A program made the position numbers and the translations under genes. A stretch of 64,000 nucleotides of DNA from Bacteriovoracaceae bacterium. GTDB taxonomy: Bacteria > Bdellovibrionota > Bacteriovoracia > Bacteriovoracales > Bacteriovoracaceae. Below are positions 36,294 through 52,574 of this stretch, in pieces. The DNA is taken from assembly GCA_048270185.1 (NCBI GenBank), contig JBLWTJ010000004.1, positions 64,001 through 128,000 of the forward strand, in the 5' to 3' direction. Below the pieces are notes generated by a model. It saw only the letters and a list, made by a program, of their open reading frames with translations, was not told where the DNA came from and did no database searches. Positions within the stretch are counted from its first letter, which is position 1. Every line of letters begins with the position of its first letter.

Positions 36294-36339
36294 ACAATGT
36301 TATCTTATTGAAATATAGAACGAAGTGTTTGAGAAAAAA

Positions 36340-36429
36340 TGGCGGAGAAGGCGAGATTTGAACTCGCGGTACCCGTAAGGGTACGACACCTTAGCAAGGT
36401 GCTGGATTCGGCCACTCTCCCACTTCTCC
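36340..36429 (-). tRNA. tRNA-Ser(GCT)
   Basis: GGAGAAG/CTTCTCC acceptor stem, anticodon GCT, long variable arm, encoded CCA. Confidence 0.96.
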
Positions 36430-36443
36430 ACAAAGAAATGAAA

Positions 36444-36529
36444 TGGCGGAGGACACAGGATTCGAACCTGCGGAGCTCGCGCTCAACGGTTTTCAAAACC
36501 GCCGCTTTCGACCACTCAGCCAATCCTCC
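36444..36529 (-). tRNA. tRNA-Ser(TGA)
   Basis: GGAGGAT/GTCCTCC acceptor stem, anticodon TGA, long variable arm, GGTTCGAATCC, encoded CCA. Confidence 0.96.
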
Positions 36530-36590
36530 GCAAAAACACAAAAAGTTTTGCATTCGTGAGATATATTATTAAGATTCTTCCATACATTTG

Positions 36591-39500
36591 TCAACGCTTT
36601 AATTGATTAATTAATGCTTGAATATTTTGACGATCTGGTGCAGTTGGGCTCAGTGTCAAATATCTTTGAAATTTATCAATCGCCAAATTAGGCTGACCAA
36701 GTTCTTTATATAGAAATCCCATCATCTTATTAAGCTCTGGATCCGTTGAATTGAGCTGATTAGCGCGCTGAAAGAACTGTAGAGACGGAACAAACTCACG
36801 CGTCTGAAAAGTCAATTTACCCATCGAGAAAATAGCATCAAAATAGCGTTTATTGATCTGTATTGCCTTAGAGAGATTTGTCTTAGCTTCATTTACTTTC
36901 TTCGCACGTAAATAAATTTCTCCTAAAATATAATAACCATACTCTGAACTAGGATGGAGTTTAATTTCAGCTTGGGCCATCTTCTCAGCTTCTTTGAAAT
37001 TCCCCTGTTGGAAGAAGATCTTCGAACGGTAATAATTAATACGAGGATAAGTCGGAAGCCTCTCTTCGAGAATATTGATATGTTTAACGGCCGCATTGAA
37101 GTTTTTAAGGTGAATATAAGTGATGATTAACTTCTCACGTACAAGAAGGTTTCCAGGCTCGTAAACGAGAAGTTTAATAGCGTTCTCGACTAATTCTTTA
37201 TAATTTCTTTCAATCTCAGATACTTCAACTAAGTATGAATAAAGAGCACCATCTTTCTTGTTAAGGCGATCAAGTACTTCCTTCATCTCGCGGTAAGCTT
37301 CAAAATTTTGATCTCGATAATAAAATACTGCAATCTGCCCATAGAGTTTTGGATTTTCTTTATGCTCTAATAATTCTTTTCTAAGATATCCTATGGCAGT
37401 TGAAACACCATCTGTTTCATAGAGAACCTTACTATTTAGAATTTTATAATCAATATTTGACGGATTTAAATTAATCGCATCATTTAAAAAGATCTTAGTT
37501 TGCTTAAGTTTCTTATTCTTAAATGCAATCTGGGCCATTTCATAGAATGGGATATCACTTAGAGGATTAACTCTAGCTGCTGCTTTAAACTTATCAAAGG
37601 CCATTTTATCATTAGAAATTAGACGATAGTAAAGTCCTAGTAGCATATGGAATTCATAGGTCTCACGAAACACTTCACTGGTAGAAAGTGCAGATAAAAG
37701 TCTTTTCGCTTCATCTTTTTTAAATGACTTTATATTTGCATTAATTAGAGCGTAGTTTACACGTGGATTTACAGGATGAAGTGCTCTAAGTTTTGTTAAA
37801 GTCTTAATGGCAAAGTCAAAGTACCCTCTTTTTACTTGAAGCTCTGAAAGGTAGAGCTTGGCATCGATACTTGTTTCATCTAAAGAAACCGCCCTTAAAG
37901 CGAGCTCGAATGCGCGATCCCAATTAAGAAGCGCTACTTCTTCTTTTGATTGCCTAATAAGGACTTTAATTTTACTTGTTGAAATAACCTTTTGAGTTAG
38001 ATCACTACCGGCAACATCTAAGGTCGCTAGAGTATCTCTTAAAGACTCATCATCATAAATCTTCAAAGATTGTTGGAATAACTTCGTGGCACCTTGAATA
38101 TCTTTTTCATAGGCTTTGATGAATCCCATAAATTTGAGACCTTGAGAGAATACGTAAGGTGAACCACCTCCATATTTGGCCACTAAAATAGATGCAACCT
38201 TCTTCAATAGATCCATCTTCTCTAGTTCTAATAATAATTCGCCGTAAACAATCATGAATCGGAAATCATTTTGAAACTTTGATTTATTCTCATTGATTAA
38301 ACTAAGTGCATCAGCACTTCTTTCGTTTAGAAGTAAATACTCAACCATAGCATCAATTGACTCAACTGATCGAAGCTTTGTTTGATTTAATTTTTCATAA
38401 ACTATTTTAGCTTTTTCTAATTCACCAGCTTTTAATAAGAATTTCAAGTAAACGGAAAAAAGCTTTATTGAGGGTTTATTTGATTTTAAATAATTATATC
38501 TCTCAATTGTGAAGATTGCTGTTTGATACTTTCTAAAATATCCATAAAACTGAGCTGCACCAATAACAACATCAATATCTGAAAGTAGTTTACTTTGCTC
38601 AATTCGAAGAAGTTTAGAGATAACCTGACCGGCCTTGTAGCGGTCTTGAGTATCAATTAGTAAATCACTGTAGACATGGATTAATTTATTAACGGCCGGG
38701 TTTCCAGAAAATTTATATTGTAGAGACTGATAAAACTTACCAGCAGCTGCAACTCTACCAGCATAGGTATCGAGTTGGAAGAGCTTAAGACCTTCAGCAT
38801 AGGCAACTTGGGCCTTCTGGGGTGCCGCAATTTCAGTAGCAACGGGAAATTCAATTTTCGGTACTAGGACTGTTTCAATTTCTTTCTTTTCTTCAGGTAG
38901 TAAGAAAATTATAGCAACAACTAAAAAGAGAGCTATCGTTAAGTTTCTTTTTTTATTTTGTGCTACTTTCTTAGGCTTCTTTAACTTCTCAACTTTCTTA
39001 GGTTTCTTCTTAAGACTTCTTTCCTGCTGTCTAATAGCGACCTCTAAATCAGAATAGTCCTCAATTTTAGAAGGCAGCTCTTCTTTTTTTAGATCGGCAA
39101 GGTTAAACAAGGCCGTAGCAGCATCTTCTTCAACAATCTCTTCAGCTATCTCTGGCTCTTTTTCTTCTTTCTTATCGCCATCTTCACTTTCTTCTTCATC
39201 CTCTTCATCAACACCAAGCTCTTGAGCTAAGTTATTAACGACGACGGTCTTTTCAATTTCATCTGTTTCAACTGGTTTCTTAAGATTTGAGACATTCACA
39301 ACAACTGTTTTCTCAACACCTGCTTCTTCCTCTTGCTCCTGCTCTAACTCTTTCTTTGCTTTAAACTTCTCCTGGATCTCATCGTAATCAATAGCAATGT
39401 CTTGATCTTTAGAGAATTTAAATTCATTAAAGGCCGTCTTCTCTTCACCAATTAAAGTGTGATGTTTTTGCTCACTGTCCGTAACAGCATATTTAACTTC

Positions 39501-39722
39501 TTTCGTTTCTTCTTTTACTTTATCTTCAAAAGTTTCTTCTACCTTTGAGAACAATGTTTTTAGTTCTGGAATATTACTAATGGGTGCCCAATCTCCTGTT
39601 GGAAATTTCTGAAAAAGACAGGCTTCATCTATAGCATTCTTCTGCCCTAGCTCGATTAATTCTGAAAATATAAAAGGGCCCAAAACCTTATTAGACTTGG
39701 TTTTGACACGAAACTTTATCAT
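36591..39722 (-). CDS. Large bitopic protein: GYF_2-like N-domain, acidic linker, single TM, long TPR array
   Basis: VLGPF...GDWAPI pattern; E/D-rich linker; basic stretch then LTIALFLVVAIIFLL; many TPR repeats. Confidence 0.8.
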   Translation of the reverse strand: MIKFRVKTKSNKVLGPFIFSELIELGQKNAIDEACLFQKFPTGDWAPISNIPELKTLFSKVEETFEDKVKEETKEVKYAVTDSEQKHHTLIGEEKTAFNEFKFSKDQDIAIDYDEIQEKFKAKKELEQEQEEEAGVEKTVVVNVSNLKKPVETDEIEKTVVVNNLAQELGVDEEDEEESEDGDKKEEKEPEIAEEIVEEDAATALFNLADLKKEELPSKIEDYSDLEVAIRQQERSLKKKPKKVEKLKKPKKVAQNKKRNLTIALFLVVAIIFLLPEEKKEIETVLVPKIEFPVATEIAAPQKAQVAYAEGLKLFQLDTYAGRVAAAGKFYQSLQYKFSGNPAVNKLIHVYSDLLIDTQDRYKAGQVISKLLRIEQSKLLSDIDVVIGAAQFYGYFRKYQTAIFTIERYNYLKSNKPSIKLFSVYLKFLLKAGELEKAKIVYEKLNQTKLRSVESIDAMVEYLLLNERSADALSLINENKSKFQNDFRFMIVYGELLLELEKMDLLKKVASILVAKYGGGSPYVFSQGLKFMGFIKAYEKDIQGATKLFQQSLKIYDDESLRDTLATLDVAGSDLTQKVISTSKIKVLIRQSKEEVALLNWDRAFELALRAVSLDETSIDAKLYLSELQVKRGYFDFAIKTLTKLRALHPVNPRVNYALINANIKSFKKDEAKRLLSALSTSEVFRETYEFHMLLGLYYRLISNDKMAFDKFKAAARVNPLSDIPFYEMAQIAFKNKKLKQTKIFLNDAINLNPSNIDYKILNSKVLYETDGVSTAIGYLRKELLEHKENPKLYGQIAVFYYRDQNFEAYREMKEVLDRLNKKDGALYSYLVEVSEIERNYKELVENAIKLLVYEPGNLLVREKLIITYIHLKNFNAAVKHINILEERLPTYPRINYYRSKIFFQQGNFKEAEKMAQAEIKLHPSSEYGYYILGEIYLRAKKVNEAKTNLSKAIQINKRYFDAIFSMGKLTFQTREFVPSLQFFQRANQLNSTDPELNKMMGFLYKELGQPNLAIDKFQRYLTLSPTAPDRQNIQALINQLKR

Positions 39723-39768: not shown

Positions 39769-40749
39769 TTATGGAGCTTTTTGCACTTTGCCGAAAAGAT
39801 TTTGACGATAAGCGAGCGTAATAATCAACAATACCGCTGAAAGTAGTTGTAAATTAGTCAGATAACTCATGTGTAAGTAAACAACATGCCCGATTAGAAA
39901 TAAATAGAAGACATGGACAATACTCAATAACTTGGCAATCAATAATGAATGTTCACTTCGATATGAATAGATTAGTAAATATACGATTAAGAATAATTGA
40001 TAAAAACTATCCATACCAAATACAGGTAAGAATATAATTGCACTGGCAAGACAAATCGGCATGAGTTGAATTGACTGATAACGGTAATCAATCTTATTGA
40101 ATGAGAAAATAAGTTGTAAAATTAAAAACAGTAAGAAGAAATACGGCCCTAATTCAATATTTAAGTTCATGAGTCTCTGAAGAACAGAAAGACAAAAAAT
40201 ATACTGAAGAATAGATAAGTATGGTGATGACTTTTCCTTAGGAGATAACAAAGTTGTTGTTAAAACCAGAAGCACTTCAAAGAATAAATTACCAAGTTCT
40301 TGGCCCTGAAATTCCTTAACAAAGAAATATATAACGGCAATAACAATCCATGAAATATTATAGAATAAACTGTGTTGGCTCTTCTTATCAGTGTCAAAGA
40401 AACAAAATACTCCTAGTAGTAAAATGATATCAGTGACTCCGGTGAAATTCCAAATATTAAAAAGAGAAAACCAAAGTAGTGTAAAAGCTTTAAATAGGGA
40501 CCTGAGATTACCTCCACTATTTAAAAAATAAAGGGAAAAGGCTACAGAGCATACAGCAAAGTAGCTTCGATCAATTGAAGAGAAAATAAAGTCTTCGTAT
40601 AGAACATAAAATGTCGTTAGAAATGTAAATGCAAGAACCGAGTTTACTTGCTTTCGATTTAACTTTGAAACCTTACCAATTACCTGATCGACAAAGTACA
40701 TAAGAGGATAAAGCATTAGAAGGTAGTAGAAGTTAAGCTGCATGAACAA
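39769..40749 (-). CDS. Polytopic membrane protein, putative degenerate NuoN paralogue
   Basis: 326 aa, hydrophobic throughout; seventh gene of the cluster; homology inferred mainly from position. Confidence 0.45.
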   Translation of the reverse strand: MFMQLNFYYLLMLYPLMYFVDQVIGKVSKLNRKQVNSVLAFTFLTTFYVLYEDFIFSSIDRSYFAVCSVAFSLYFLNSGGNLRSLFKAFTLLWFSLFNIWNFTGVTDIILLLGVFCFFDTDKKSQHSLFYNISWIVIAVIYFFVKEFQGQELGNLFFEVLLVLTTTLLSPKEKSSPYLSILQYIFCLSVLQRLMNLNIELGPYFFLLFLILQLIFSFNKIDYRYQSIQLMPICLASAIIFLPVFGMDSFYQLFLIVYLLIYSYRSEHSLLIAKLLSIVHVFYLFLIGHVVYLHMSYLTNLQLLSAVLLIITLAYRQNLFGKVQKAP

Positions 40750-41572
40750 CCTCCACTTTCTTAGTGCTCAATAACGAATAGGCCGTCAGAAGCACTATTA
40801 ATGGTAGTAGTGTTGCTTGTCCTGTAAAAAAAGAAACAGACAGAACAATTGTAAACATAACTATATTCGAGACTAAAACAAAGAATGACGAGTCAGAATA
40901 AAGAGTTATTAACTCGGCCAGCCCTAGTAAACACAAGCAAGTTAATGTAACGGCTACAGAAGAGTTTGGATTTAGAACAAGAACCGCAAAACTAAGAATA
41001 TTCAAAGAGCTTACTAAATTCTGTTTAAAATATAGATATATAAGCAATAACGCGACAAAAGGGATAATGATTTGTAATGAATAATCAAAAGTTGCTGAAA
41101 AATTGATAAGGGAAATATACTTTATTAAGAAGAGAGTGAGAAAAATACTATTCTTCTTTGATAAAGAAATCATAACAAATGAAGTCATCACAATAATAAA
41201 ATAAATTAGTTCAACATTTTCTTTAAATACAAGGAGTGCTATTAGATTTAATGCAACAAATCCTAAAAACTTAATATTATTTAGTTTCGCAATTGAAAAG
41301 AAGGATACTGCAAAAATTAAATATGAAGGTATATTTTGTGAGGCAAACGCCAAGAGTATAAGTGGGATTGAAAAAATTAAATCTATATTCGATTGCTTTC
41401 TTGTTACAAACAAAGCCAACAAAGAACCTACAACACTAATTATATCAAACTTAAAGCTCAATGCTAATTGTGTAAAAGGTGTATAAAAGATTCGATCACT
41501 GATAAAAAATAAACCAATAAAACATGTAATAAAAGTTACAAGATATATTATGGCCTCACGACGTAATTTCAT
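40733..41572 (-). CDS. Polytopic membrane protein, putative degenerate NuoM paralogue
   Basis: 279 aa; LSFKFDIISVVGSLL resembles NuoM FYHLGIDGISLPMVLL; sixth gene. Confidence 0.45.
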   Translation of the reverse strand: MKLRREAIIYLVTFITCFIGLFFISDRIFYTPFTQLALSFKFDIISVVGSLLALFVTRKQSNIDLIFSIPLILLAFASQNIPSYLIFAVSFFSIAKLNNIKFLGFVALNLIALLVFKENVELIYFIIVMTSFVMISLSKKNSIFLTLFLIKYISLINFSATFDYSLQIIIPFVALLLIYLYFKQNLVSSLNILSFAVLVLNPNSSVAVTLTCLCLLGLAELITLYSDSSFFVLVSNIVMFTIVLSVSFFTGQATLLPLIVLLTAYSLLSTKKVEVVHAA

Positions 41573-42858
41573 GCCACCACCTTAAATATAATAACCAAAA
41601 AGTAGATTGCAATAACGATGAGACTAAACGCTCTAATCGTACGATATGAAAGAGAAAACATTGGTACTGCTATCGTACTCGAGCCAGAAGTCTCTTGCCT
41701 AGAACTAATTGGATAAGAACTAAATATCGTCTCTAAATAGCTAACTCTCTTTTGATTTCCTAGGTTTAATTTTGTTGATAACCCAATTAGCAACTGATCA
41801 AAATTGAATACAAGTCCAATATAAATAAGAGCAATCAGTAAATATGTTAAAAGAGAATATCCTACTGAACTATTATCAACTTCAAATAAAAAAGTAGAAA
41901 AGTAGAATAAACCAACACCAACAAATGATTTGAGTAGTAGACTATAAAGTAGCTCATACCATTGAAGATTAATCTTCTTCTCCACTAATGAATCGAATTC
42001 TAAAAGCAGAATTAGAAACCCCGCAATTGTTGAAAATATAATTAAAGCAATATTCTGAACTGAGTAAGATAAAGTAAATAGTCCCAGTAGAGCAATATTA
42101 GAAAATAATGAAACCGGTAAGTACTTTCTTAATATATCAACTTCTCTATTCATTAATTCTATTGATTTAATAAAGGATTTTGTAAAATAGTAAAAGGCGA
42201 TATAGGCCATTAACATATTCTCGAGATTCAAGAGAACACAAACAAGAGAAGTTAAGAGAAATACCAGCTTGAAAATGTTCTTCTTATTAACAATGAGAAA
42301 AGACAATAGAAACACTAAAAAGATAAGGAATACATTTAATGTTTGTGAAATATGTTGAATATCAGTCGTAAGAAGAAGTGAAAGAATAAGCCCATCAACA
42401 ATAGCAAATTCTTCATTTGTAGAAACTAAAGTTGAAAAAATTAAATAAGCACAGAATAAATATTTAAATGAAGCTGTTTTATCAACAAGTGTTAGAAATG
42501 CGATTATTGCAATTTTAAGAATAGGAAGAGTTCGATCTTTTATTCCATTGAAGTTAAAAAAGATACAACTGCTGAATCCAATAATCTTTAAGTTTTGCTC
42601 TATTGGTAATAATAAAATACCGTATGGCAGTAGCTCTACAATCGTACGTTTTGACTGTTCTAATATAATAAAAGAAAAAATAAACGGAAGGATTAAGTTA
42701 ATAAACCCTATTTCGATATTAGCAAGGTAAAAGCTCCCATTTAGCAATAATGGAAATAAAGCGATAAACAGTCGCGTCCAATTATTTAACTTATCTTTGT
42801 AATGAAATAATACAAGTGTCGCAAAAAATAATAGAGTTAAAATAACTTGTACTATCAT
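41569..42858 (-). CDS. Polytopic membrane protein, putative degenerate NuoL paralogue
   Basis: 429 aa, longest of the cluster; hydrophilic segment before a final TM, like the NuoL lateral helix plus last TM. Confidence 0.5.
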   Translation of the reverse strand: MIVQVILTLLFFATLVLFHYKDKLNNWTRLFIALFPLLLNGSFYLANIEIGFINLILPFIFSFIILEQSKRTIVELLPYGILLLPIEQNLKIIGFSSCIFFNFNGIKDRTLPILKIAIIAFLTLVDKTASFKYLFCAYLIFSTLVSTNEEFAIVDGLILSLLLTTDIQHISQTLNVFLIFLVFLLSFLIVNKKNIFKLVFLLTSLVCVLLNLENMLMAYIAFYYFTKSFIKSIELMNREVDILRKYLPVSLFSNIALLGLFTLSYSVQNIALIIFSTIAGFLILLLEFDSLVEKKINLQWYELLYSLLLKSFVGVGLFYFSTFLFEVDNSSVGYSLLTYLLIALIYIGLVFNFDQLLIGLSTKLNLGNQKRVSYLETIFSSYPISSRQETSGSSTIAVPMFSLSYRTIRAFSLIVIAIYFLVIIFKVVA

Positions 42859-43121
42859 TTTAGCCCCTGTCTAACACGAAATTCTTTATAAATTGAATTA
42901 ATCATTAATAAAATTGGTGCCACATATATAATTAACATAACTCCATCATTTAATGAGATTGATTCCTGTACTCTTAAATCAATCAAAAGTAGAAGAATAG
43001 TTACTACAGTAAATAATGAAAATATCTTCTTTGAAAATCTTGTCGTAAAAAGATAAACACCAAGATTAATAACAAATAATGTTGAAAGTAATGTAAATGT
43101 GTCGATATTATGCATTCTCAT
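42855..43121 (-). CDS. Small membrane protein, putative degenerate NuoK paralogue
   Basis: 88 aa, 3 TM; LNDGVMLIIY aligns by eye with NuoK NIDGNIMSLF. Confidence 0.55.
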   Translation of the reverse strand: MRMHNIDTFTLLSTLFVINLGVYLFTTRFSKKIFSLFTVVTILLLLIDLRVQESISLNDGVMLIIYVAPILLMINSIYKEFRVRQGLK

Positions 43122-43554
43122 CCCCTTCTAAGTTTACAAGTGAGATGAATGCTAGAAAGATTAAAATTACACTAAACTTAAGTACGACGGCCATATCAAC
43201 ATACGTATCAACATTGAAGTTCGTAACCAAATCAATCAAACCATTCTTTGATTTTAAGTGATAAATATCTATCGACAGTACTCCAACTGTTATCATCGTA
43301 AACAATATATAAGGGATATAACTAAATCTCTTATAACTCACTTCTGTCGTAGGGTAACAATATTCAATGATACTAAGTAAGAATATAATGATTAAGAGAA
43401 ATGTAATTAAGAAATAAAGTAGAACAATTGAAGAGAATCCAAACATACTAAGTAGTAAACCAACAATCGCAACAGGATACAGAATCATTGTATATTTCTT
43501 ACGAGCAAATGCTGCCAAAATGAATAGAGTTATAATGATTAAATTAAAAAACAC
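43108..43554 (-). CDS. Membrane protein, putative degenerate NuoJ paralogue
   Basis: 148 aa; AFARKKYTMILY vs NuoJ AVSKNLMHSCIY; DMAVVLKFSVILIFLAFI vs DHVLAFEISSILLLGALV. Confidence 0.55.
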   Translation of the reverse strand: MFFNLIIITLFILAAFARKKYTMILYPVAIVGLLLSMFGFSSIVLLYFLITFLLIIIFLLSIIEYCYPTTEVSYKRFSYIPYILFTMITVGVLSIDIYHLKSKNGLIDLVTNFNVDTYVDMAVVLKFSVILIFLAFISLVNLEGDENA

Positions 43555-44380
43555 TACTAACCTTTAATATGCACATAATTATTATAACGAGCAAACTAAA
43601 GACAGCTCTTCTCTTAGAGTTCTTAGTTATCGTTGTATAATCTCTTAATGGTTGAAACTTAATATATATATTACTTAAAACTATCAATATCGTTTGAATA
43701 AAGAATACAAAAGCTGATATTGAAAAAAGAAATAGTACGCTGGTATTAAACTTGTCTTTAAATACGACAGCAAGATCACTACGAACAAATGTTAAAGCTA
43801 AAAAGAAAAGTACTAATAAGCTTTGAAATAATAATCTAATATAAGAGCACTGAATCTTAACGTAACTTTTATCTGTGTATTGACTACCAGTTCTAATCAT
43901 CTCAAGTTCTGTTGCATAGAACAAAAGAAGAAGAGGTAGTTCAAATGCTAGTCTTATTAAAAATGAATTAGTCTGTAGTAACTTATATGTTAATACCATT
44001 GCTGTAATAATTATGAGCTGACAAATAGTTATTTGAGCTTGCTCAAGAACTTCGTGTCTTATTATAGATAAACGAAATCTGAAGACACCTAAGAACACTA
44101 CAGATATTAAAACTATTGAAAACAAGGCCAATAGAAAACTTATCTCATTTGTAATAATAAAATTGATCGATAAAATCTGACCTAAAATTAGGAAGAAGAT
44201 TAATGTAATGAAAGAGTTGAAACTTAAAGCATCAACAGAACTAACACCATTAGATGCTAATAAGTATTTCTTTAAACTTAAAACAGGTGCAAACTCTTTC
44301 GCATTAACGAATGAGCCAATTAGTTGAATAAGAATGAACCACAGTGGAAGTGCTAAAATGAGCTCCAAAACATGCCTCAA
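43544..44380 (-). CDS. Membrane protein, putative degenerate NuoH paralogue
   Basis: 278 aa; AQITICQL vs NuoH SQIISYEV; SYIRLLF vs EYIEVFV. Confidence 0.5.
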   Translation of the reverse strand: MRHVLELILALPLWFILIQLIGSFVNAKEFAPVLSLKKYLLASNGVSSVDALSFNSFITLIFFLILGQILSINFIITNEISFLLALFSIVLISVVFLGVFRFRLSIIRHEVLEQAQITICQLIIITAMVLTYKLLQTNSFLIRLAFELPLLLLFYATELEMIRTGSQYTDKSYVKIQCSYIRLLFQSLLVLFFLALTFVRSDLAVVFKDKFNTSVLFLFSISAFVFFIQTILIVLSNIYIKFQPLRDYTTITKNSKRRAVFSLLVIIIMCILKVSSVF

Positions 44381-44680
44381 TTACAAAATTAGTATTAGTA
44401 AAATTGTAACAAAGCCTGCCAGTATTGAATACGCTTCTTTATAAAAATCTAAGGTTCCTGTACCAACAATTATGACCGTCATCATTGAGATAACAGAGAA
44501 GACAATGACAAGTTTGAAAATACCTCTAATAGATTTAAGGTCATTCTTAACTAGTTTACTTTCATTATGGATCTTCTTAAATGGAGATAGAACAATTTTG
44601 GGTTTAAAAAATAAGGGGTAGCCTAAAACTACCCCTAGTATTAATGAAATGATAATTGAAGTCAGTAGTACTAATTCCAT
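44381..44680 (-). CDS. Small membrane protein, putative degenerate NuoA paralogue
   Basis: 99 aa; TM - loop - TM - TM layout; KIVLSPF vs NuoA ELKLTPY; starts 1 nt after the nuoN stop. Confidence 0.5.
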   Translation of the reverse strand: MELVLLTSIIISLILGVVLGYPLFFKPKIVLSPFKKIHNESKLVKNDLKSIRGIFKLVIVFSVISMMTVIIVGTGTLDFYKEAYSILAGFVTILLILIL

Positions 44681-44681
44681 A

Positions 44682-46157
44682 CTACTTAATTAAGAGCAGA
44701 GCTCCGTTAGCTGCAGTTAATAACTTCTGCCAGAAGATACCAAGAACAATTACTGGCACAGTGTATGCAGCGATGATTAACTGATTAACAAAACCAAAAC
44801 CAGAGATCTTCTCATCAGACTCAGAGTCTTTAAACACCATTACTCTTACAACTTTCATGTAGTAGTAAAGTGAGATTACTGAGTTAAGAGCAGTAATAAC
44901 TGCTAACACATAGTATTTCTTATCAATGATTGCCGCTAGAATATTAAATTTAGCAACAAATCCCGCAAGCGGTGGAAGACCGGCCAAAGAGAACATTGTG
45001 ATTGCCATTGTAATCGCCATTGCAGGGTGTTTTTTAATTAGTCCAGCAAAGCGATCGATATGATCATTACCGTAGTGATCTTGAACAAATGAAGCAACAT
45101 AGAAAGCGACAAGAGTCATGAAAAGGTATGTTACAGCATAGAAAAGAATTGCAGTTGTACCACTTTGTCCAAGAACAATTGCACCTAACATCATAACACC
45201 TGCGTGAGAGATACCAGAGAAAGCAAGCATTCTCTTAATTGATCTTTGACCAATTGCTGAAACGTTACCGACAGTCATTGTAAGTGCTGCAACAAACATT
45301 AGAAGAACGATCCATGAGTGTTTAAGAGCACCAACATCGCCACCAAAGAAGACCTGAGTAATTCTTGCAAAAGCAACAATCCCAGCAAACTTCGGAACAA
45401 GTGAGAAGAAAGCTGTTACAGGTAGTGGTGAACCTTCATAAACATCTGGTGACCACATATGAAATGGTACACATGCTATCTTATATCCAATACCTACGAA
45501 AAACAGTAGGAATGAAGGGATTAGAATTGCTGTTTGTTCAGTTGAAAGCTTCGCCATAAGAGGAATCATTTCAGAGAAGTTAATCGTCCCTATTGTTCCA
45601 AAAATGTGACTCATACCAAAAAGCATCATCCCGGCAGTAACACCACCGTAAAGAGCATACTTAAGACCAGCTTCAGTTGATCTCTCATCGTTCTTCTTAA
45701 GAGCTGCCATAGCGTATGACAGAATAGAAAGAGTTTCGATACCGATATAGAAGATCAGCATGTTGTTAGCAGAAGCTAGTAACATACCACCAACTAAGAT
45801 ACCAAGAGCAAGAATACTAAATTCTGCTTTTGTTCCTTCGTATAGATCTTTAGAAACCTTTGATAAGTAGATCGCACCGGCAGTACTTAAAATCATTACA
45901 ATTTTAGCAAAACCTGAGAAATGATCCATTACTACTGATTTAGTAAAGATATGCGTCGCTTCTACACCTAGGCCCTTAACTTGATAAATCAGAGCACATA
46001 GGAGTCCAAGCATTGCACCCCAGTATAACATTCCCTTCGAGCTACCCTTCTCATCATTTCCGTAAGTAGCTTCGATGAGGATTAGAGCCCCCATCGTGAA
46101 GCATACTAAAAGCTCCGGAATATAATGTGCGATACTCGCTAAATAATTTAAAGCCAT
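44682..46157 (-). CDS. nuoN: NADH-quinone oxidoreductase subunit N
   Basis: GIETLS, EAGLKY, YKIACVPFHMWSPDVYEG, IKRMLAFS and GFVAKF motifs. Confidence 0.96.
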   Translation of the reverse strand: MALNYLASIAHYIPELLVCFTMGALILIEATYGNDEKGSSKGMLYWGAMLGLLCALIYQVKGLGVEATHIFTKSVVMDHFSGFAKIVMILSTAGAIYLSKVSKDLYEGTKAEFSILALGILVGGMLLASANNMLIFYIGIETLSILSYAMAALKKNDERSTEAGLKYALYGGVTAGMMLFGMSHIFGTIGTINFSEMIPLMAKLSTEQTAILIPSFLLFFVGIGYKIACVPFHMWSPDVYEGSPLPVTAFFSLVPKFAGIVAFARITQVFFGGDVGALKHSWIVLLMFVAALTMTVGNVSAIGQRSIKRMLAFSGISHAGVMMLGAIVLGQSGTTAILFYAVTYLFMTLVAFYVASFVQDHYGNDHIDRFAGLIKKHPAMAITMAITMFSLAGLPPLAGFVAKFNILAAIIDKKYYVLAVITALNSVISLYYYMKVVRVMVFKDSESDEKISGFGFVNQLIIAAYTVPVIVLGIFWQKLLTAANGALLLIK

Positions 46158-46172
46158 CTCTTCACCTATTGA

Positions 46173-47705
46173 CTAGAAAGTCGCTAATAATGAAACTAGT
46201 TGTCCTACAGAAGCCTTCATCATGTCTAGTAATGGAGTTGGGTAAATACCAAACACGATTACGGCCACACATAGTGGGAGCATGTAGAAGATTTCTCTAG
46301 CATTCATATCTGTATATGATTTGTTTTCTTCAATAACTTCACCAAAGAACATTCTCTTGAACATCCATAGTAGGTAAGCAGCACCAAGAAGAAGACCAAT
46401 AACTGCAAGTACAGTAATTGTTGTAAATCTGTTGTAGATCCCTAGGAAAATTAGAGCTTCTGAGATGAAACCTGAAAGACCTGGAAGACCCATTGATGCA
46501 AACATCGCGATAATGAAAACAATCGAGTACTTTGGAAGTTGTGTATAAAGACCACCAAAACCTTTTGTTCCATCTGGTCTGATAATCCATCTGTGGTGTG
46601 ATCTTTCATAAAGAATACCAATAAGAAGGAACATCATTGCAGTTGAAGTACCGTGGTTGAACATCTGAAGAACAGCACCGTTCATACCTTGTACAGTCAT
46701 TGCAGCAAGACCTAGCATTACAAACCCCATGTGAGATACAGAAGAGTATGCAACTAACTTTTTAACGTCTGTTTGTGCCATTGCACAGAATGCACCGTAA
46801 ATTACGTTAATTAAACCTAACCATGCGATTGCGTCAGCAAAGTAAACTGAAGCTGATGGGAAGATTGGGAATGCAATTCTTAGGAAACCATAAGTACCCA
46901 TCTTAAGTAGTACACCGGCAAGGATAACTGAGATCGCTGTTGGTGCCTGAACGTGTGCGTGTGGTAGCCATGTGTGGAATGGAAATACCGGAACTTTAAT
47001 TGCGAAACCGATGAAAAGTGCTACGAAGAATACTTTTGCAAATGGAAGCGCCATTCCGAATAAGTTAACTGTTTCGTTTACAAACTTACCACCTGAAAGT
47101 GCTAAGATATTGAATGAGTCAACTCCTTGACCAGTTACGAAGTATAGAGCAACCATACCAACTAGCATTAGGATTGAACCAAAGAAAGTATATAAGAAGA
47201 ATTTAACAGCTGCGTATTCTCTGTTTTCACCACCCCAAATACCAATTAGGAAGAACATTGGGATTAGCATTACTTCCCAGTAAACATAGAAAAGGAAGAA
47301 GTCTAATGAAAGAAAAACACCAAATACAGTCGACTGAAGCATTAGTAGTAATGCGAAGTAACCTTTAACTTGCTTTTTTACTGTCCATGAAGAAAGAATA
47401 CAGATTGCAAAAAGCAGTGAAGTTAAAAGGACCATTGGTAATGAAATACCGTCAATACCTAAGTGGTAGAAGATATTAAATTGTGAAATCCAAGCTTTCT
47501 TAATAGTAAACATTTCCTGCATACCTGGGACAGAAGTGTCGAATTTTAAGTATAGACACCCTGTTAAAACCATAGTGATCACAGTATTGATTAATGACCA
47601 TACTCTGATCGCAGTTTCTTTGGCCTTAGGTAGTAAAAGTACCCCAAGAACACCAATCATAGGCATCCACAGAATCCAACTTAATAGATTAGAATGTGCG
47701 CTCAC
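46173..47705 (-). CDS. nuoM: NADH-quinone oxidoreductase subunit M
   Basis: GIDGIS, YWEVML, IKVPVFPFHTWLPHAH, LLKMG and GFISE motifs. Confidence 0.97.
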   Translation of the reverse strand: MSAHSNLLSWILWMPMIGVLGVLLLPKAKETAIRVWSLINTVITMVLTGCLYLKFDTSVPGMQEMFTIKKAWISQFNIFYHLGIDGISLPMVLLTSLLFAICILSSWTVKKQVKGYFALLLMLQSTVFGVFLSLDFFLFYVYWEVMLIPMFFLIGIWGGENREYAAVKFFLYTFFGSILMLVGMVALYFVTGQGVDSFNILALSGGKFVNETVNLFGMALPFAKVFFVALFIGFAIKVPVFPFHTWLPHAHVQAPTAISVILAGVLLKMGTYGFLRIAFPIFPSASVYFADAIAWLGLINVIYGAFCAMAQTDVKKLVAYSSVSHMGFVMLGLAAMTVQGMNGAVLQMFNHGTSTAMMFLLIGILYERSHHRWIIRPDGTKGFGGLYTQLPKYSIVFIIAMFASMGLPGLSGFISEALIFLGIYNRFTTITVLAVIGLLLGAAYLLWMFKRMFFGEVIEENKSYTDMNAREIFYMLPLCVAVIVFGIYPTPLLDMMKASVGQLVSLLATF

Positions 47706-47723
47706 TGTAACTCCTTAATTCGC

Positions 47724-49907
47724 TTATAAAGCTAAAATATAACCTAATAGTACTAAAATAATCATAACAATATAGAACTGGATCTTACCGTTTTGGATCG
47801 TTCTTAAGATAACGTTAAAGAAACGTACACTTGCTCCAGTTCCATCAACCATAATTGTATCGACAAATAAATTATCGAACCAAGCTGATACTCTCATAAC
47901 GAACTTCGTTACACCGGCCCAACCATCGATTGCAAATCTGTCATAGACACCCATATCAAACTTAGCAAGAAGGTTGTTAAACGGTAGAAGTCCTTTTTGA
48001 ATGAAACCTTTAATATAAAGATCATCCATAAAGTATTTATTTTGAAGAACTCTGTAGTAACGATTAAAAGCATTAACCCAGAACCCAGGATTCCATTTAC
48101 CCCATAGGTACATCATCATCGCAATGAATACACCAGAGAATGCAATCACAATCGACATACCAGCACCAATATAGTGAACTTGGTGTACATGGTGTGCTTC
48201 TTCTTCAGAAAGGCCATATGTTGAGTCATACTTTGACTTTGTGAAAGTACCTTTTTCACGAGCATCAATTTGCCCTAGTTCTTCACGTTTATAGTTTTCA
48301 AATTGACCTTTCTTTGGTTTTTGTACAAGAGTTTGGAACCACTCATACTTTCCATTAGTCTTATCAGCTACTTTTACGAAACCTTGACCAGTTAAAGATC
48401 CTGAGAACCATACACCAAGTGTAAAAACTGCAAGAATTAGAAGAGGTACGTTTCTGTTCCATGAAAGTTTTTCTTCATGACAGTGATCGTAAACTTCTTT
48501 ATCTCTTGGCTTCCCGTGGAAAGCTAAGAACATCATACGACACATATAGAATGCAGTAAGAAGTGCACCAGCAAATCCAAGTACAGCTGGAGCAATCATA
48601 ACTGGTGAGTGCATTGCTTCAATTAAGGCATCACCTAGAATTCTATCTTTAGATACGAATCCAGAGAAGAATGGGATACCAGCAATAGCAAGAGTACAAC
48701 ACCACATTGCAAACCAAGTGAATTTCATTTTATGTCTAAGACCACCCATTCTTGGCATCTCTTGTACGTGAGCATGCGTGTGGTGATCATGTAATGAGTG
48801 AATAACTGAACCTGCTGCTAGGAATAGACATGCCTTGAAAACAGCGTGTGTAATTAGGTGCATGAAAGCAGCATTATAAGATCCAACACCAATACCTAGA
48901 ACCATGTATCCTAGTTGAGAAATTGTTGAAAATGCTAGAACCGCTTTGAAGTCTGTTTGAACTAGAGCGATTGTTGCAGCACCGAAGGCAGTGATACCAC
49001 CGATATAAGCAACAACTGTTAGAAGTCCACCAGCATCAAGTAGTGGGTAAATTCTTAGTGAAAGATAAACACCGGCCGCAACCATTGTTGCTGCGTGGAT
49101 TAGGGCCGAACATGGAGTTGGACCATTCATGGCATCTGGTAGCCAAACGTTTAATGGGAACTGAGCTGATTTTCCAATTGTTCCCATGAAGATACAGAAA
49201 CCAGCAAAAGTAGCTAGTGGAATACCAATAACAGCTTTACCTACTAAACCACCTGCATCGATTGCATTATAAAGATCAACGAAGCTTACAGAACCAACAA
49301 CCGTCCAAAGAGCAACAATACCTAGTAAGAAGAAAACATCCCCTACTCTTGTTGTCATGAAGGCCTTAACGTTAGCTGCACCAGCAACTTCTTTCTCGTA
49401 GTAGTGACCAATTAGTGAGTATGAACAGAATCCCATGATCTCCCAGAAGATAAATACTGAAAGTAAGTTATCTGATAGTGCAAGACCAAGCATTGCTGAA
49501 GTAAAGAGTGACATATAAGTGAAGAAACGTCCGTTACGTCCGTAATTCATGTCATCTTTCATATAGTAAGTTGAGAAGATGTGGATCAGAGTAGCAACGG
49601 CCGTAACCATCATTACTAAGATTGCAGTCATGTTATCGATGTAAATACCCATCTTAACTGCGAACTCTTGACCTCCACCGTTTAGATCAAACCAAGTGAA
49701 TACTTTGTGAATGTGATAATTAGCTGCATACGTCCCGAAAACGAAGTCGCTAAAAATTCTCCATGCATAAACTGTAGAACCTGCAATTGCCGCACAACTT
49801 AACGTTACCGCTGTTCTCGTAAAACGTGACGCGATAAATGCGTTAATAACGAAAGCAAAGAATGGCAGTAAAACAATTGGAGCAATACTTGATATCGTAT
49901 AATCCAT
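47724..49907 (-). CDS. nuoL: NADH-quinone oxidoreductase subunit L
   Basis: FWEIMG, RVGD, GKSAQFPL, SALIHAATMV, HAVFKA and SKDRI motifs. Confidence 0.97.
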   Translation of the reverse strand: MDYTISSIAPIVLLPFFAFVINAFIASRFTRTAVTLSCAAIAGSTVYAWRIFSDFVFGTYAANYHIHKVFTWFDLNGGGQEFAVKMGIYIDNMTAILVMMVTAVATLIHIFSTYYMKDDMNYGRNGRFFTYMSLFTSAMLGLALSDNLLSVFIFWEIMGFCSYSLIGHYYEKEVAGAANVKAFMTTRVGDVFFLLGIVALWTVVGSVSFVDLYNAIDAGGLVGKAVIGIPLATFAGFCIFMGTIGKSAQFPLNVWLPDAMNGPTPCSALIHAATMVAAGVYLSLRIYPLLDAGGLLTVVAYIGGITAFGAATIALVQTDFKAVLAFSTISQLGYMVLGIGVGSYNAAFMHLITHAVFKACLFLAAGSVIHSLHDHHTHAHVQEMPRMGGLRHKMKFTWFAMWCCTLAIAGIPFFSGFVSKDRILGDALIEAMHSPVMIAPAVLGFAGALLTAFYMCRMMFLAFHGKPRDKEVYDHCHEEKLSWNRNVPLLILAVFTLGVWFSGSLTGQGFVKVADKTNGKYEWFQTLVQKPKKGQFENYKREELGQIDAREKGTFTKSKYDSTYGLSEEEAHHVHQVHYIGAGMSIVIAFSGVFIAMMMYLWGKWNPGFWVNAFNRYYRVLQNKYFMDDLYIKGFIQKGLLPFNNLLAKFDMGVYDRFAIDGWAGVTKFVMRVSAWFDNLFVDTIMVDGTGASVRFFNVILRTIQNGKIQFYIVMIILVLLGYILAL

Positions 49908-49929
49908 TTTCTTTCCTTATATAATTAAA

Positions 49930-50235
49930 TTAACTCTGTAATTCAGTTGCATCATCAATGTGAATCGAATCTTTAACTTGAAAGAATCTAATCACAATGG
50001 CTAAACCTACGGCCGCTTCAGCTGCGGCAATAATAATAATGAATAGTGACATAATATTTCCGTCAATATTCTGATTAACAAATCTTGTATAAGCAGCAAA
50101 GTTTAGAGCTGCTGCGTTTAAGATAAGTTCAACCCCTAAAAGGATCGCAATAATATTTTTTCTCGCCACCATAACTGCAATACCAGCTAGGAATAAGAAG
50201 AAAGATACTAAAAGGTAAGAAGATAAAGTGATCAT
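49930..50235 (-). CDS. nuoK: NADH-quinone oxidoreductase subunit K
   Basis: RKN, GVELILNA and AAAEAAVGLA motifs. Confidence 0.96.
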   Translation of the reverse strand: MITLSSYLLVSFFLFLAGIAVMVARKNIIAILLGVELILNAAALNFAAYTRFVNQNIDGNIMSLFIIIIAAAEAAVGLAIVIRFFQVKDSIHIDDATELQS

Positions 50236-50765
50236 TTATTTATTCTCCTTGGTCTAGAAATTACGGCTGCACCAACAAGTGCTCCAAGAAGAAGAATCGA
50301 AGAGATCTCAAATGCAAGAACATGGTCAGTAATTAGCTTCACACCAATTTCCTCTATCGTCGATTGCATATCTTCTAATTGTACGTGTTTTTGAATTTTT
50401 AAGATTGGAGCGAGAAGCTTCATTAGAATAAAACTCATAATCAGCATCATGATCGCTGCGATTGTATAAGTTTTTGTTGTTCCCATCGCTGCAACTTTCT
50501 TAATACCAAACTTGTTATAAGCTTGCTCGATTCCACCAGTTAACATGATGGCAAAAAGCATTAGGATAACAACACCACCAGCGTAAACAACTAATTGAGC
50601 TGCCGCTAAGAAGTCTGCACCTAAAGTTGCATATAAACCGGCCACTCCAAAAAGAGTAAGTAGCAGATAAATACATGAGTGCATTAAGTTTTTCGACACA
50701 GCTACTAGGAATGCTCCTATAACTGTTGCCGCTGCTGAAAGTAAAAACATTGTGTTAATAAACAT
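50232..50765 (-). CDS. nuoJ: NADH-quinone oxidoreductase subunit J
   Basis: QLVVYAGGV and FEISSILLL motifs. Confidence 0.95.
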   Translation of the reverse strand: MFINTMFLLSAAATVIGAFLVAVSKNLMHSCIYLLLTLFGVAGLYATLGADFLAAAQLVVYAGGVVILMLFAIMLTGGIEQAYNKFGIKKVAAMGTTKTYTIAAIMMLIMSFILMKLLAPILKIQKHVQLEDMQSTIEEIGVKLITDHVLAFEISSILLLGALVGAAVISRPRRINK

Positions 50766-50783
50766 TTCAAATATCCTTAAAGA

Positions 50784-51992
50784 TTAGTGTCCGCCCGCAC
50801 CTGCAGAAGCATGTGCGATAACATTTCCTAGTACTGACCAAATTGACTTAGTATCAAATACGTAAAGCCATACAGCACATCCAATTAAATTAAATAGTGC
50901 AATAGGAGTTAAGTACTTCCAACAAAGAACCATTAATGAGTCAACTCTCATTCTTGGAAGTGTCCACCTAATCCAAATAACTACATAATAAAGAAGTAGT
51001 GTCTTTGTAAGGAAAGATCCTAATTGTAGGAAGTTTCCAATTTGTTTTCCAATCATAGGGTGAGCAGATGGAATTAGCTTTGTAACAAATTCACCTGTTC
51101 CAAGTCCGAAAGGAACTTGATATCCACCTAGGAATAAAGCAGCACAAACACCACAAACAACAAATACTTCAATATATTCTGCAAGAGCGAAGAAACCAAA
51201 CTTCATTCCTGTATATTCTGTGTGGTAACCAGAAACTAGTTCCGACTCAGCTTCAGGAAGGTCAAATGGTGCTCTGTTTGTTTCAGCAAGTGCTCCAATA
51301 AATAGAACGAAGAAACCAATGAAAGCAAATGGGTTGTGAAGAACAAACCACTGGTGAGGTAGACCACCTTGAGCTTCTGTAATTGTTTTAAATGAAAGAG
51401 AACCCGTCATGATTACAATTGCAAGAATTGATAATGTTACAGGAACTTCATAAGAGATAATCTGAGATGCACCCCTCATACCACCAAGCATTGACCACTT
51501 AGAGTTTGAAGCATAACCACCTAGGAAAATTCCTACACCTACTAATGATGAAACACCTAGTAAGTAGAAAACACCAATATTAAGGTGAGTAAGAGTAAAT
51601 CCACTTGAGAAAGGTACGACAGCAATTGACATGAACACACCACCAAGCGCTAAGAAAGGCGCAAGGTTAAACATGAATCTGTCCGCTTGTCTTGGTACAA
51701 CGTCTTCCTTAAGAATCATCTTCACACCATCAGCTAGGAATTGAAGAAGTCCATAAGGTCCAACTCTGTTTGGTCCCTGTCTCATCTGTAGGTCGGCAGA
51801 TATTTTTCTTTCTGCGTACGTACCTAAACCACCAACTGCAGAAAGAGCACCAATGATGATTAATGAGAAAACTAAGAAGATTAAAAAAGTAACGATACCT
51901 GTTGCATCAGTGCCTAATAAATTCGACAGTGCATCCACTGCCATTGAAAAGCCTGGTGCTTGTGATAAATACGATACAATCGTTGAGTTCAT
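50784..51992 (-). CDS. nuoH: NADH-quinone oxidoreductase subunit H
   Basis: ERK, RQGPNRVG, ADGVK, SYEV, ETNRAPFDLPEAESELV and PRMR motifs. Confidence 0.97.
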   Translation of the reverse strand: MNSTIVSYLSQAPGFSMAVDALSNLLGTDATGIVTFLIFLVFSLIIIGALSAVGGLGTYAERKISADLQMRQGPNRVGPYGLLQFLADGVKMILKEDVVPRQADRFMFNLAPFLALGGVFMSIAVVPFSSGFTLTHLNIGVFYLLGVSSLVGVGIFLGGYASNSKWSMLGGMRGASQIISYEVPVTLSILAIVIMTGSLSFKTITEAQGGLPHQWFVLHNPFAFIGFFVLFIGALAETNRAPFDLPEAESELVSGYHTEYTGMKFGFFALAEYIEVFVVCGVCAALFLGGYQVPFGLGTGEFVTKLIPSAHPMIGKQIGNFLQLGSFLTKTLLLYYVVIWIRWTLPRMRVDSLMVLCWKYLTPIALFNLIGCAVWLYVFDTKSIWSVLGNVIAHASAGAGGH

Positions 51993-52408
51993 TATTTATC
52001 CTTTCCATTTGTATTTGGTTGGAAACTTTTAACCCAATCAAGGTCACCTTTTTTCCAGCAATAAACTAAACCTAAACTAAGAATGATGATGAACATTAGA
52101 AGTGATCCAAGAACTGCACCACCCTGTCCCATTTCGACAAATCTTCTGTAAACACTTGCCACAGGGAACATTAAAGCACCTTCAACATCAAAGATTAAAA
52201 ATACAAGAGCAATAACGTAGAAACGTACGTTAAAGTTAGACCATGCTGTACCAGTTGGCTCTTCACCACACTCGTAAGGAGTGAGTTTAAGTTCAGTTGG
52301 ATTATTTGGTCTAATAAAACTACCAATAAATAACGTACCAACAAAAGCAACCGCTGCTACAACCAATAAAATTAATACCGGCATATAGACGTCAAAGTTT
52401 TGCGACAT
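51992..52408 (-). CDS. nuoA: NADH-quinone oxidoreductase subunit A
   Basis: PYECG, FLIFDVE and WKKGDLDW motifs. Confidence 0.96.
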   Translation of the reverse strand: MSQNFDVYMPVLILLVVAAVAFVGTLFIGSFIRPNNPTELKLTPYECGEEPTGTAWSNFNVRFYVIALVFLIFDVEGALMFPVASVYRRFVEMGQGGAVLGSLLMFIIILSLGLVYCWKKGDLDWVKSFQPNTNGKDK

Positions 52409-52574
52409 CGATTTCTCTCCATGTATAAGTAAAGTAAGTTCCCAAATATTACACGATTACTAGCACTTTGGAAATAAATTGGCCCTCTTTTTTTGTGTAA
52501 TATCTTCTATTTAGTAACGCATGGGCCAATGCATAAATTCTTTTTTTGAAAAGTTAATTGTGTTAAAAAACATC

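Follow-up and report, generated by a model that had tools for sequence, protein, structure and literature searches.

We analyzed a stretch of 64,000 nucleotides (nts) from the genome of a Bacteriovoracaceae bacterium (GenBank assembly GCA_048270185.1, contig JBLWTJ010000004.1, positions 64,001 to 128,000 of the forward strand), hereafter called the window. On its minus strand the window carries a nuoAHJKLMN operon, which encodes the membrane arm of a respiratory complex I (set 1), and directly after nuoN, on the same strand, come seven open reading frames (ORFs) that we call the ghost ORFs. Probably they are what a second complex I has kept of its membrane arm (A2-H2-J2-K2-L2-M2-N2), and they may now form a noncatalytic pseudocomplex that is still under selection. 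For the set as a whole, descent from the membrane arm of a second complex I is well supported; predicted models point to it directly for ORFs 2 and 7, as does a profile for ORF 2, and for the rest it is positional. An earlier reading of the window (the original prediction) had proposed descent in A-H-J-K-L-M-N order, and this is upheld by positional orthology, by the folds of ORFs 7 and 2, and by a NuoH profile match at position 2. The ghost ORFs, with lengths in amino acids (aa), are as follows.

Ghost ORF 1, 44381-44680, minus strand: 99 aa, NuoA positional orthologue
Ghost ORF 2, 43544-44380, minus strand: 278 aa, NuoH/ND1-like (model and profile)
Ghost ORF 3, 43108-43554, minus strand: 148 aa, NuoJ positional orthologue
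Ghost ORF 4, 42855-43121, minus strand: 88 aa, NuoK by position alone
Ghost ORF 5, 41569-42858, minus strand: 429 aa, NuoL by position alone
Ghost ORF 6, 40733-41572, minus strand: 279 aa, NuoM by position alone
Ghost ORF 7, 39769-40749, minus strand: 326 aa, NuoN/ND2-like (model)

The coordinates and sizes given in the original prediction for these abutting or overlapping ORFs were exact, and all seven are strongly hydrophobic, as it had stated (grand average of hydropathy [GRAVY], 0.84 to 1.28). From nuoN on, the junctions are a gap of 1 nt, a gap of 0 nts, and overlaps of 11, 14, 4, 4, and 17 nts; the likely start of ORF 7 is the ATG at 40743, which has GGAGG before it. When the 4,912-nt region was shuffled 1,000 times, the longest stop-free run had a mean of 90 codons and a maximum of 180, and four of the ghost ORFs (278 to 429 codons) are longer than any of these runs. 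The GC content is 0.28 to 0.33 over the ghost ORFs versus 0.36 to 0.42 in nuo, and the GC content of third codon positions (GC3) is equal, 0.24 to 0.31 in the ghosts versus 0.25 to 0.33 in nuo. Because GC3 is equal, the drop in GC reflects amino acid composition, and we rejected low GC as a mark of mutational decay.

Positional orthology across the Bacteriovoracaceae

With NuoN as the anchor we gathered 66 loci from named genomes, 62 of them from within the Bacteriovoracaceae radiation, with those of Halobacteriovorax spp. nearest to the window; the 47 family loci with at least 7 kb downstream of nuoN were used for counts of flanking genes. Seven consecutive hydrophobic ORFs follow nuoN in 42 of these 47 loci. 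A hydrophilic ORF of at least 950 aa comes next in 34 of the 42 and is the counterpart of a TPR/GYF protein of the window (36591-39722). There is no second set in four loci (L059, L071, L087, and L089), where the large ORF comes directly after nuoN. Locus L084 (nuoN at 10001-11449) has a single 256-aa hydrophobic ORF between nuoN and the large TPR-type ORF, perhaps all that is left there of a second set.

The less-diverged second copies that the original prediction had proposed to look for in relatives exist. Set-1 hidden Markov models (HMMs) recognized all seven subunits in 5 of the 42 loci, one or two in 6, and none in 31, the window included, and every significant match fell on the corresponding position. 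In L044, Pfam finds A, H, J, K, L, M, and N in order (E values of 1.3e-27, 1.7e-106, 5.2e-30, 2.8e-26, 1.5e-79, 2e-73, and 2.3e-36); L073 and L053 have kept H and K, with A or J weak, and L090 has kept N alone. Position 1 is recognizable as NuoA in 9 loci. The sizes form a continuum, from 119/349/169/97/658/494/462 aa through 116/371/167/98/608/447/451 and 116/368/178/103/538/387/448 aa down to the values of the window; at position 5 they are 657 to 658 aa in intact sets, 537 to 629 aa in others, and then 417 to 455 aa. The ghost ORFs have 55 to 87% of the lengths of their set-1 counterparts (that is, they are 13 to 45% shorter) and 54 to 92% of the lengths of intact second sets.

An all-versus-all comparison of 342 second-set proteins (E < 1e-3) gave 1,310 same-position versus 73 cross-position matches, and all except one of the 40 distinct cross-position pairs were between the paralogues L, M, and N. 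The gene order and orthology at this site are those of the complex I membrane subunits, A-H-J-K-L-M-N, with recognizable members at the same place. On a tree of concatenated set-1 NuoH, NuoL, NuoM, and NuoN (the window and 55 of the 66 loci; the remaining loci are missing one of the four genes), loci whose second set is intact, partial, undetectable, or absent are intermingled, which indicates repeated independent divergence and loss.

Sequence, predicted fold, and selection

Standard searches do not place the ghost ORFs. Pfam (E values up to 1) gave no family for ORFs 2 to 7 and irrelevant weak matches only for ORF 1, NCBIfam gave no match for any of the seven, and none reached the thresholds of the complex I membrane-subunit profiles (PF00507, PF00146, PF00499, PF00420, and PF00361). 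A six-frame search of the genome with PF00361 recovered only L, M, and N of set 1. As the original prediction had expected of standard annotation, 21 of 21 named cluster members from close relatives are called "hypothetical protein" or "putative membrane protein." The residual similarity to Nuo proteins that it had read by eye did not survive: in BLASTP against the seven Nuo proteins the best E value was 0.35 and the weak pairs ignored position, and hhalign of six-genome window profiles against the seven Nuo family profiles gave at most 6.2% probability. Iterated HMM searches from the window ORFs did not get past the genus, other than by weak chains for positions 1 and 3, and top-down iteration from intact second sets never listed the window ORFs, even at E < 10. 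The chain from ORF 3 reaches 53 canonical NuoJ proteins through a first link that is weak (E value of 8.3e-4).

The strongest sequence signal came from a positional profile of ORF 2, A4, which consists of the window ORF and 14 genus-level positional orthologues, none of them individually detectable as Nuo. Against set-1 NuoH, A4 gave 80.6% (E value of 1.3e-5), versus at most 1% against the other six subunits, and against recognizable second-set NuoH it gave 96.2% (E value of 2e-9 over 297 columns). ND1 was the top match to A4 in a search of PDB sequences, at an E value that is not significant (0.029), and accounted for 9 of 18 rows; the A3 profile found nothing in the PDB. Signals to recognizable proteins of the same position were weak at position 1 (8.3%) and position 3 (18%), and broader positional profiles gave no Nuo sequence signal at positions 4, 5, 6, and 7. 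When window clades were compared by hhalign with 59 second-set clades, the best match of ORFs 1, 2, 3, and 6 was at the same position, at low probability, and ORFs 4 and 5 had none. The ORF 7 profile matches ORF 6 distantly, in the manner of a paralogue (9.1%, 265 columns). In the protein atlas, the first match of ORF 5 was a cluster named "NADH:quinone oxidoreductase/Mrp antiporter membrane subunit" (0.80), which is a lead only, and nothing was found for ORF 6.

The AlphaFold2 model of ORF 7 has a predicted local distance difference test score (pLDDT) of 82.1 and a predicted template modeling score (pTM) of 0.86, and it was built from 19 sequences, none of them detectable as Nuo. The modeled protein has the antiporter-like fold of NuoL, NuoM, and NuoN. 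Among 48,161 PDB representatives, its top match by VIA was Escherichia coli NuoN (3rko_N; Z score of 21.4, root mean square deviation of 3.7 Å, 319 of 326 residues), followed by ND2 and NuoN from other species; rows 1 to 25 were all antiporter-like subunits (Z scores of 13.3 to 21.4), and the first unrelated row had a Z score of 10.0. Foldseek gave ND2, ND4, ND5, and MrpD as top matches. With 14 helical elements in the model, the helix bundle appears to have been kept while loops and helix ends were trimmed. For ORF 2 the model (pLDDT of 66, pTM of 0.54) is of the NuoH/ND1 fold, with Z scores in the gray zone for helical bundles: the best 50 PDB matches by Foldseek were all ND1, NuoH, or NdhA (E values of 0.025 to 0.31), and the top four by VIA were ND1, MbhM, MbsM, and ND1 (Z scores of 12.5, 12.0, 11.7, and 11.5 over 202 to 219 residues), with an unrelated next row at 9.4. 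The structure and profile check suggested by the original prediction thus bore it out for ORF 7 (NuoN-like) and ORF 2 (NuoH-like) and left ORFs 4, 5, and 6 without a sequence signal.

Pairing of ORF 6 with ORF 7 was also predicted, with a median score of 0.47 (runs of 0.54, 0.47, and 0.26) versus 0.00 for the best control; the pLDDT of the partners was at least 56 and contact agreement was at least 81%. In the calibration of this score, the same mark is passed by 116 of 157 solved complexes and by 2 of 215 mismatches, and scores of 0.60 or less were obtained for just 18 of the solved complexes, yet for both mismatches.

Among 41 related genomes, the window's own included, the 429-aa ORF is present in 6. 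All seven ORFs are intact and syntenic behind nuoN in the 5 relatives, with near-identical lengths, and across these relatives the ghost ORFs are 36 to 79% identical versus 85 to 96% for the Nuo proteins. We calculated the ratio of nonsynonymous (dN) to synonymous (dS) divergence by the Nei-Gojobori method among the four closest genomes. Over all seven ghost ORFs dN/dS was 0.01 to 0.19 in close pairs, like the values of neighboring genes, and dS was unsaturated.

ORF 1: dN/dS of 0.03-0.19; a range of 0.03-0.31 was also obtained
ORF 2: 0.04-0.07
ORFs 3, 4, and 7: 0.01-0.04 (ORF 3, 0.01-0.03; ORFs 4 and 7, 0.02-0.04)
ORFs 5 and 6: 0.05-0.11 (ORF 6, 0.07-0.11)
Set-1 nuo genes: 0.00-0.09 (one nuoA pair with a dS of 0.01 gives 0.59)
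Flanking TPR and 187-aa genes: 0.01-0.04

The ghost genes are under purifying selection and are not decaying, in agreement with the prediction that they are still under selection. Their dS of 0.16 to 3.2 matches the 0.31 to 1.6 of the flanking genes. We rejected a special mutation rate as the reason for the high ghost dS, because the flanking TPR and 187-aa genes share it and set 1 is unusually low. In close genomes the dS of the set-1 nuo genes is 0.01 to 0.34, versus 0.31 to 1.6 in the TPR/GYF gene (36591-39722) and the 187-aa gene (35557-36120). This low value points to strong codon-level constraint or to recent recombinational homogenization of the operon.

Proton pumping by complex I depends on a pair of Glu residues in NuoK, acidic residues in NuoH, and Glu and Lys residues in NuoL, NuoM, and NuoN. 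To score such residues we used the charged columns that do not vary in the set-1 alignments. Intact second sets retain 25 to 26 of 26 in NuoH, both membrane Glu residues of NuoK, 17 of 25 in NuoM, 14 to 15 of 24 in NuoN, and 24 to 27 of 51 in NuoL. Partly diverged second sets retain 4 to 14 of 26 in NuoH and neither NuoK Glu. The original prediction had found none of the pumping motifs in the ghost ORFs. This is supported in part, by ORF 4, in whose sequence three hydrophobic segments can be read, with no Glu in segments 2 and 3; the other ORFs are not reliably alignable for scoring. The clade-invariant charged residues of ORF 7 include D107, E146, E151, E158, and H279.

A terminator-like hairpin, found by a consensus scan, lies just past nuoN.

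Terminator-like hairpin, 44614..44636, minus strand: 10-bp stem, 3-nt loop, then TATTTTTT

The hairpin is GC rich, lies inside ORF 1, 46 nts past the nuoN stop, and has a free energy of -14.7 kcal/mol (z score of -3.15). Its stem is invariant in 6 genomes while adjacent synonymous sites vary. A hairpin with a T-run occurs 8 to 64 nts after nuoN in 31 of the 66 loci (32 with one at 154 nts), and the stem sequences differ between clades. Most fully diverged sets have it, as do most loci in which the operon just stops, whereas 6 of 9 intact sets (the other 3 have weak 6-bp matches only) and 9 of 9 intermediate sets do not. This distribution suggests that transcription into the ghost genes may be attenuated by the hairpin.

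Origin and remaining partners of the second set

Trees of NuoH and NuoM were made with those second-set proteins that could be aligned at E < 1e-5 (those of the window are not among them). These proteins fall into a single clade, with support of 0.98 and 1.0, which groups with the nuo cluster of a divergent member of the Bacteriovoracaceae (L098) and with an acidobacterial sequence, outside the set-1 clade (53 NuoH and 59 NuoM sequences). These trees place the second set in another complex I lineage and do not make it a copy of the adjacent operon. The L098 genome (G176) itself has seven PF00346 matches in four separate ORFs, and so several NuoD-type genes; its nuoN is 32% identical to that of the window.

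The second set also has its own peripheral arm. Among 14 genomes scored in addition to the window's own, a second NuoD gene of the fused NuoCD type (open frames of 546 to 587 aa) was found in 12 of 12 with a second set and in 0 of 2 without one. The Pfam E value of the second NuoCD ranges from 1e-98 to 1e-110 in genomes with an intact membrane set and is as weak as 3e-50 elsewhere. In L115, which has an intact set, the second NuoCD is part of a nuoB-CD-E-F-G-I operon; L116 has all six peripheral genes, with E, F, and G weak, and in L114 B-CD-I alone are left. With a nuoB-CD-E-F-G-I operon of its own where it is intact, the second set is part of a distinct complex I, one of the 14-subunit type. 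According to passages of PMC13147790, Bdellovibrionota have a universal nuoAHJKLMN cluster and, in predatory strains, another nuo cluster, and the two distinct clusters of Peredibacter are 37.5 to 41.5% identical.

Directly upstream of the second peripheral operon or its remnant, in 4 of 4 genomes examined, is a gene for a conserved hydrophilic protein of 487 to 538 aa that matches no Pfam family. In the window genome (G000) it is at G000:C1:682102-683565 on the minus strand, and its counterparts are at L114:6952-8469, L116:6896-8512, and L117:12111-13727.

The peripheral partner of set 1 in the window genome is a nuoB-C-D-I operon on another contig (G000:C3:199867-202666), which contains the one NuoB of that genome. 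There is no NuoF in this 95.9%-complete genome, and there are three Proton_antipo_M genes. These three facts point to a working complex I of 11 subunits that has no NADH-oxidizing module. The syntenic site of the second peripheral operon (G000:C1:680569-682086, minus strand) holds a single 505-aa NuoCD-like ORF (NuoC E value of 4.3e-4; NuoD E value of 3e-5 at 23.6 bits, just below the 24-bit cutoff), with no space for B or I alongside. Across the genus it is intact in 13 of 13 genomes, with identities of 22 to 54%. The window genome has neither a NuoB, NuoD, and NuoI to serve as Q-module partners of the ghost arm nor NuoE, NuoF, or NuoG partners for it. Judged by this gene content, a ghost complex has no Fe-S subunits and so cannot carry electrons; in the window genome it cannot be a redox enzyme.

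The set-1 membrane arm occupies 44682..52408 of the window on the minus strand, with Pfam E values of 1.6e-22 to 8.6e-112 across its seven genes, all of which were assigned by Pfam.

nuoA, 51992-52408, minus strand: 138 aa
nuoH, 50784-51992, minus strand: 402 aa
nuoJ, 50232-50765, minus strand: 177 aa
nuoK, 49930-50235, minus strand: 101 aa
nuoL, 47724-49907, minus strand: 727 aa
nuoM, 46173-47705, minus strand: 510 aa
nuoN, 44682-46157, minus strand: 491 aa

An ORF of 1,181 aa (52521-56066, plus strand) is divergent from nuoA. On the other side, the TPR/GYF protein (36591-39722, minus strand) has 1,043 aa, with a GYF_2-like N terminus (weak, E value of 0.007), a charged low-complexity region, and C-terminal TPR repeats; it is found 3' of the nuo cluster in nearly all loci of the family, whether a second set is present or absent. 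Beyond it are two tRNA-Ser genes (36340-36429 and 36444-36529, minus strand) with anticodons GCT and TGA, and an 82-aa ORF at 36305-36553 was rejected as a gene because it is a translation artifact of these two genes.

Interpretation and known systems

In the scheme that we propose, a second complex I of the 14-subunit type had its membrane genes behind the set-1 operon and nuoB-CD-E-F-G-I elsewhere, and it is intact in a few lineages. In most lineages it has diverged, with this Halobacteriovorax as an extreme state: here none of its Fe-S and NADH-oxidizing subunits is left, only a barely recognizable fused NuoCD at the other locus. The analysis shows common descent, the NuoN-like and NuoH-like folds that have been kept, the lack of a second NuoB and of any NuoF in the assembly, and genes that are intact and under purifying selection. 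The eight proteins (the seven ORFs plus the NuoCD-like protein) may still assemble as a membrane complex shaped like complex I, without electron transfer and probably without proton pumping. It would be retained as a scaffold, membrane organizer, or assembly partner of the working 11-subunit enzyme, and the hairpin behind nuoN would keep its expression below that of set 1. The stepwise loss of canonical residues and the shrinkage of the proteins favor a noncatalytic, structural role, to which we give roughly even chances. The fuller version, that the whole enzyme, arm and NuoCD cap together, became a catalytically dead but strongly selected pseudocomplex I in which sequence drifts while architecture holds, is tentative, and we rate it a little short of an even chance.

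Several points weigh against these proposals. The loss of pumping residues is seen in alignable intermediates and not in the window's own proteins, which cannot be aligned. A dN/dS of 0.01 to 0.04 would be equally expected of a working transporter, so the nonpumping state is something that we infer. The hairpin could mean that the ghost genes are barely transcribed. ORFs 4, 5, and 6 are assigned by position, size, and hydrophobicity, with no sequence or fold signal of their own, and a search of 1.84 billion representatives with the ORF 7 profile returned 5 proteins of 321 to 333 aa and no NuoN. The AlphaFold2 models cover two of the seven ORFs, and complex I structures were part of the training of AlphaFold2. 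The model of ORF 2 is mediocre (pLDDT of 66), and its Z score of 12.5 is within the range that is ambiguous for helical bundles with this tool. The predicted pairing of ORFs 6 and 7 gives weak support to complex formation, and likeness to the solved NuoM-NuoN pair may explain why it passed.

The rival with the most in its favor is that the diverged arm and its NuoCD-like cap are a repurposed, still active machine that moves protons or sodium through new polar residues, uncoupled from redox chemistry. Mrp antiporters operate without a redox module. Such a machine would fit the strong purifying selection (dN/dS of 0.01 to 0.04 for ORFs 3, 4, and 7), the whole antiporter-like bundle of ORF 7 (319 of 326 residues on NuoN) with its clade-invariant charged residues, and the near equality of MrpD and MBH/MBS subunits with NuoN as matches of ORF 7 (Z scores of 17.9 to 19.9). 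However, alignable intermediates lose the canonical Glu and Lys columns step by step, the proteins are 13 to 45% shorter than the set-1 subunits, hydrophobic segments 2 and 3 of ORF 4 have no Glu, and at the distance between the window and L007 the sequences turn over 1.5 to 4 times as fast as the neighboring TPR protein. We consider this explanation unlikely but still a serious rival.

The original prediction had derived the second set from a tandem duplication of the upstream nuoAHJKLMN operon. Although the gene order is identical and the second set lies immediately behind set 1, the NuoH and NuoM trees place the second sets together outside set 1, beside L098 and the acidobacterial sequence, and the peripheral arm that goes with them is a different one, with a fused NuoCD plus E, F, and G; two distinct nuo clusters are also described for Bdellovibrionota in passages of PMC13147790. 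A duplication is thus very improbable. Equally hard to credit, and if anything harder, is the view that the ghost ORFs are functionless relics nearing deletion, their frames open by chance or because function was lost recently. The four loci without a set, the one 256-aa ORF of L084, the shrinking sizes, and the hairpin ahead of the genes would agree with it, but it is contradicted by dN/dS values of 0.01 to 0.19 with unsaturated dS, by seven intact ORFs in 42 of 47 loci family-wide, by frames beyond those of all 1,000 shuffles, and by lengths conserved within the genus.

Descent from a second complex I means that seven consecutive "hypothetical proteins" can conceal a whole complex I membrane arm, revealed by synteny and structure prediction only, and it argues for position-aware naming of the second-set genes across the Bacteriovoracaceae. 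The graded series within one family (intact, partly recognizable, unrecognizable, and deleted) separates the requirements of the membrane-arm architecture from those of proton pumping. Should the ghost complex be produced and assemble, it would count among the rare multisubunit pseudoenzymes that selection maintains, and other roles of the complex I membrane arm would be testable in a culturable predator. A structural job, such as organizing the inner membrane or stabilizing the 11-subunit enzyme, would, if true, be one not yet assigned to complex I modules. Full-text literature searches, supplements aside, turned up no paper that describes the second set or how it diverged; nuo, complex I, and NADH occur 0 times in PMC12724312 and PMC11656739, and the terms Bdellovibrio, duplication, and degeneration occur 0 times in bioRxiv 10.1101/2025.03.13.643058.

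The ghost set resembles the membrane arm of respiratory complex I (ND3/1/6/4L/5/4/2) in gene order, subunit number, positional orthology, and the folds of ORFs 7 and 2. It differs from that arm in that the ghost ORFs have no Pfam or NCBIfam match and are shorter, pumping residues have been lost in the alignable intermediates, and the genome lacks a second NuoB. The two sets fit the picture of two nuo clusters in Bdellovibrionota, and the passages of PMC13147790 on these clusters say nothing of a second set behind nuoN, of its degeneration, or of hypothetical ORFs at this site. The nearest parallel in the literature is in a passage of PMC6676996, on extra operons of nuoAHJKLMN only in marine actinomycetes (Salinispora, Streptomyces, and Kocuria), which are discussed as marine adaptation genes. 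The ghost set is likewise an extra A-H-J-K-L-M-N set of the membrane arm only in a marine bacterium; unlike the actinomycete copies, which standard annotation identifies as nuo genes, the ghosts are beyond recognition and are the likely remnant of a full second enzyme.

The ghost set is also like Mrp in being a membrane module without an NADH module. ORF 7 matches MrpD (Z scores of 19.2 to 19.3), MBS subunit H (19.9), and MBH subunit H (17.9), and ORF 2 matches MbhM and MbsM (12.0 and 11.7). Mrp genes run in the order mrpA-G, and the ghost set has neither this order nor the Mrp subunit set; likeness to the MrpD fold is common to all antiporter-like subunits. In contrast to Mrp, the gene order and descent of the ghost set are those of complex I, and the top matches of ORF 7 are NuoN and ND2.

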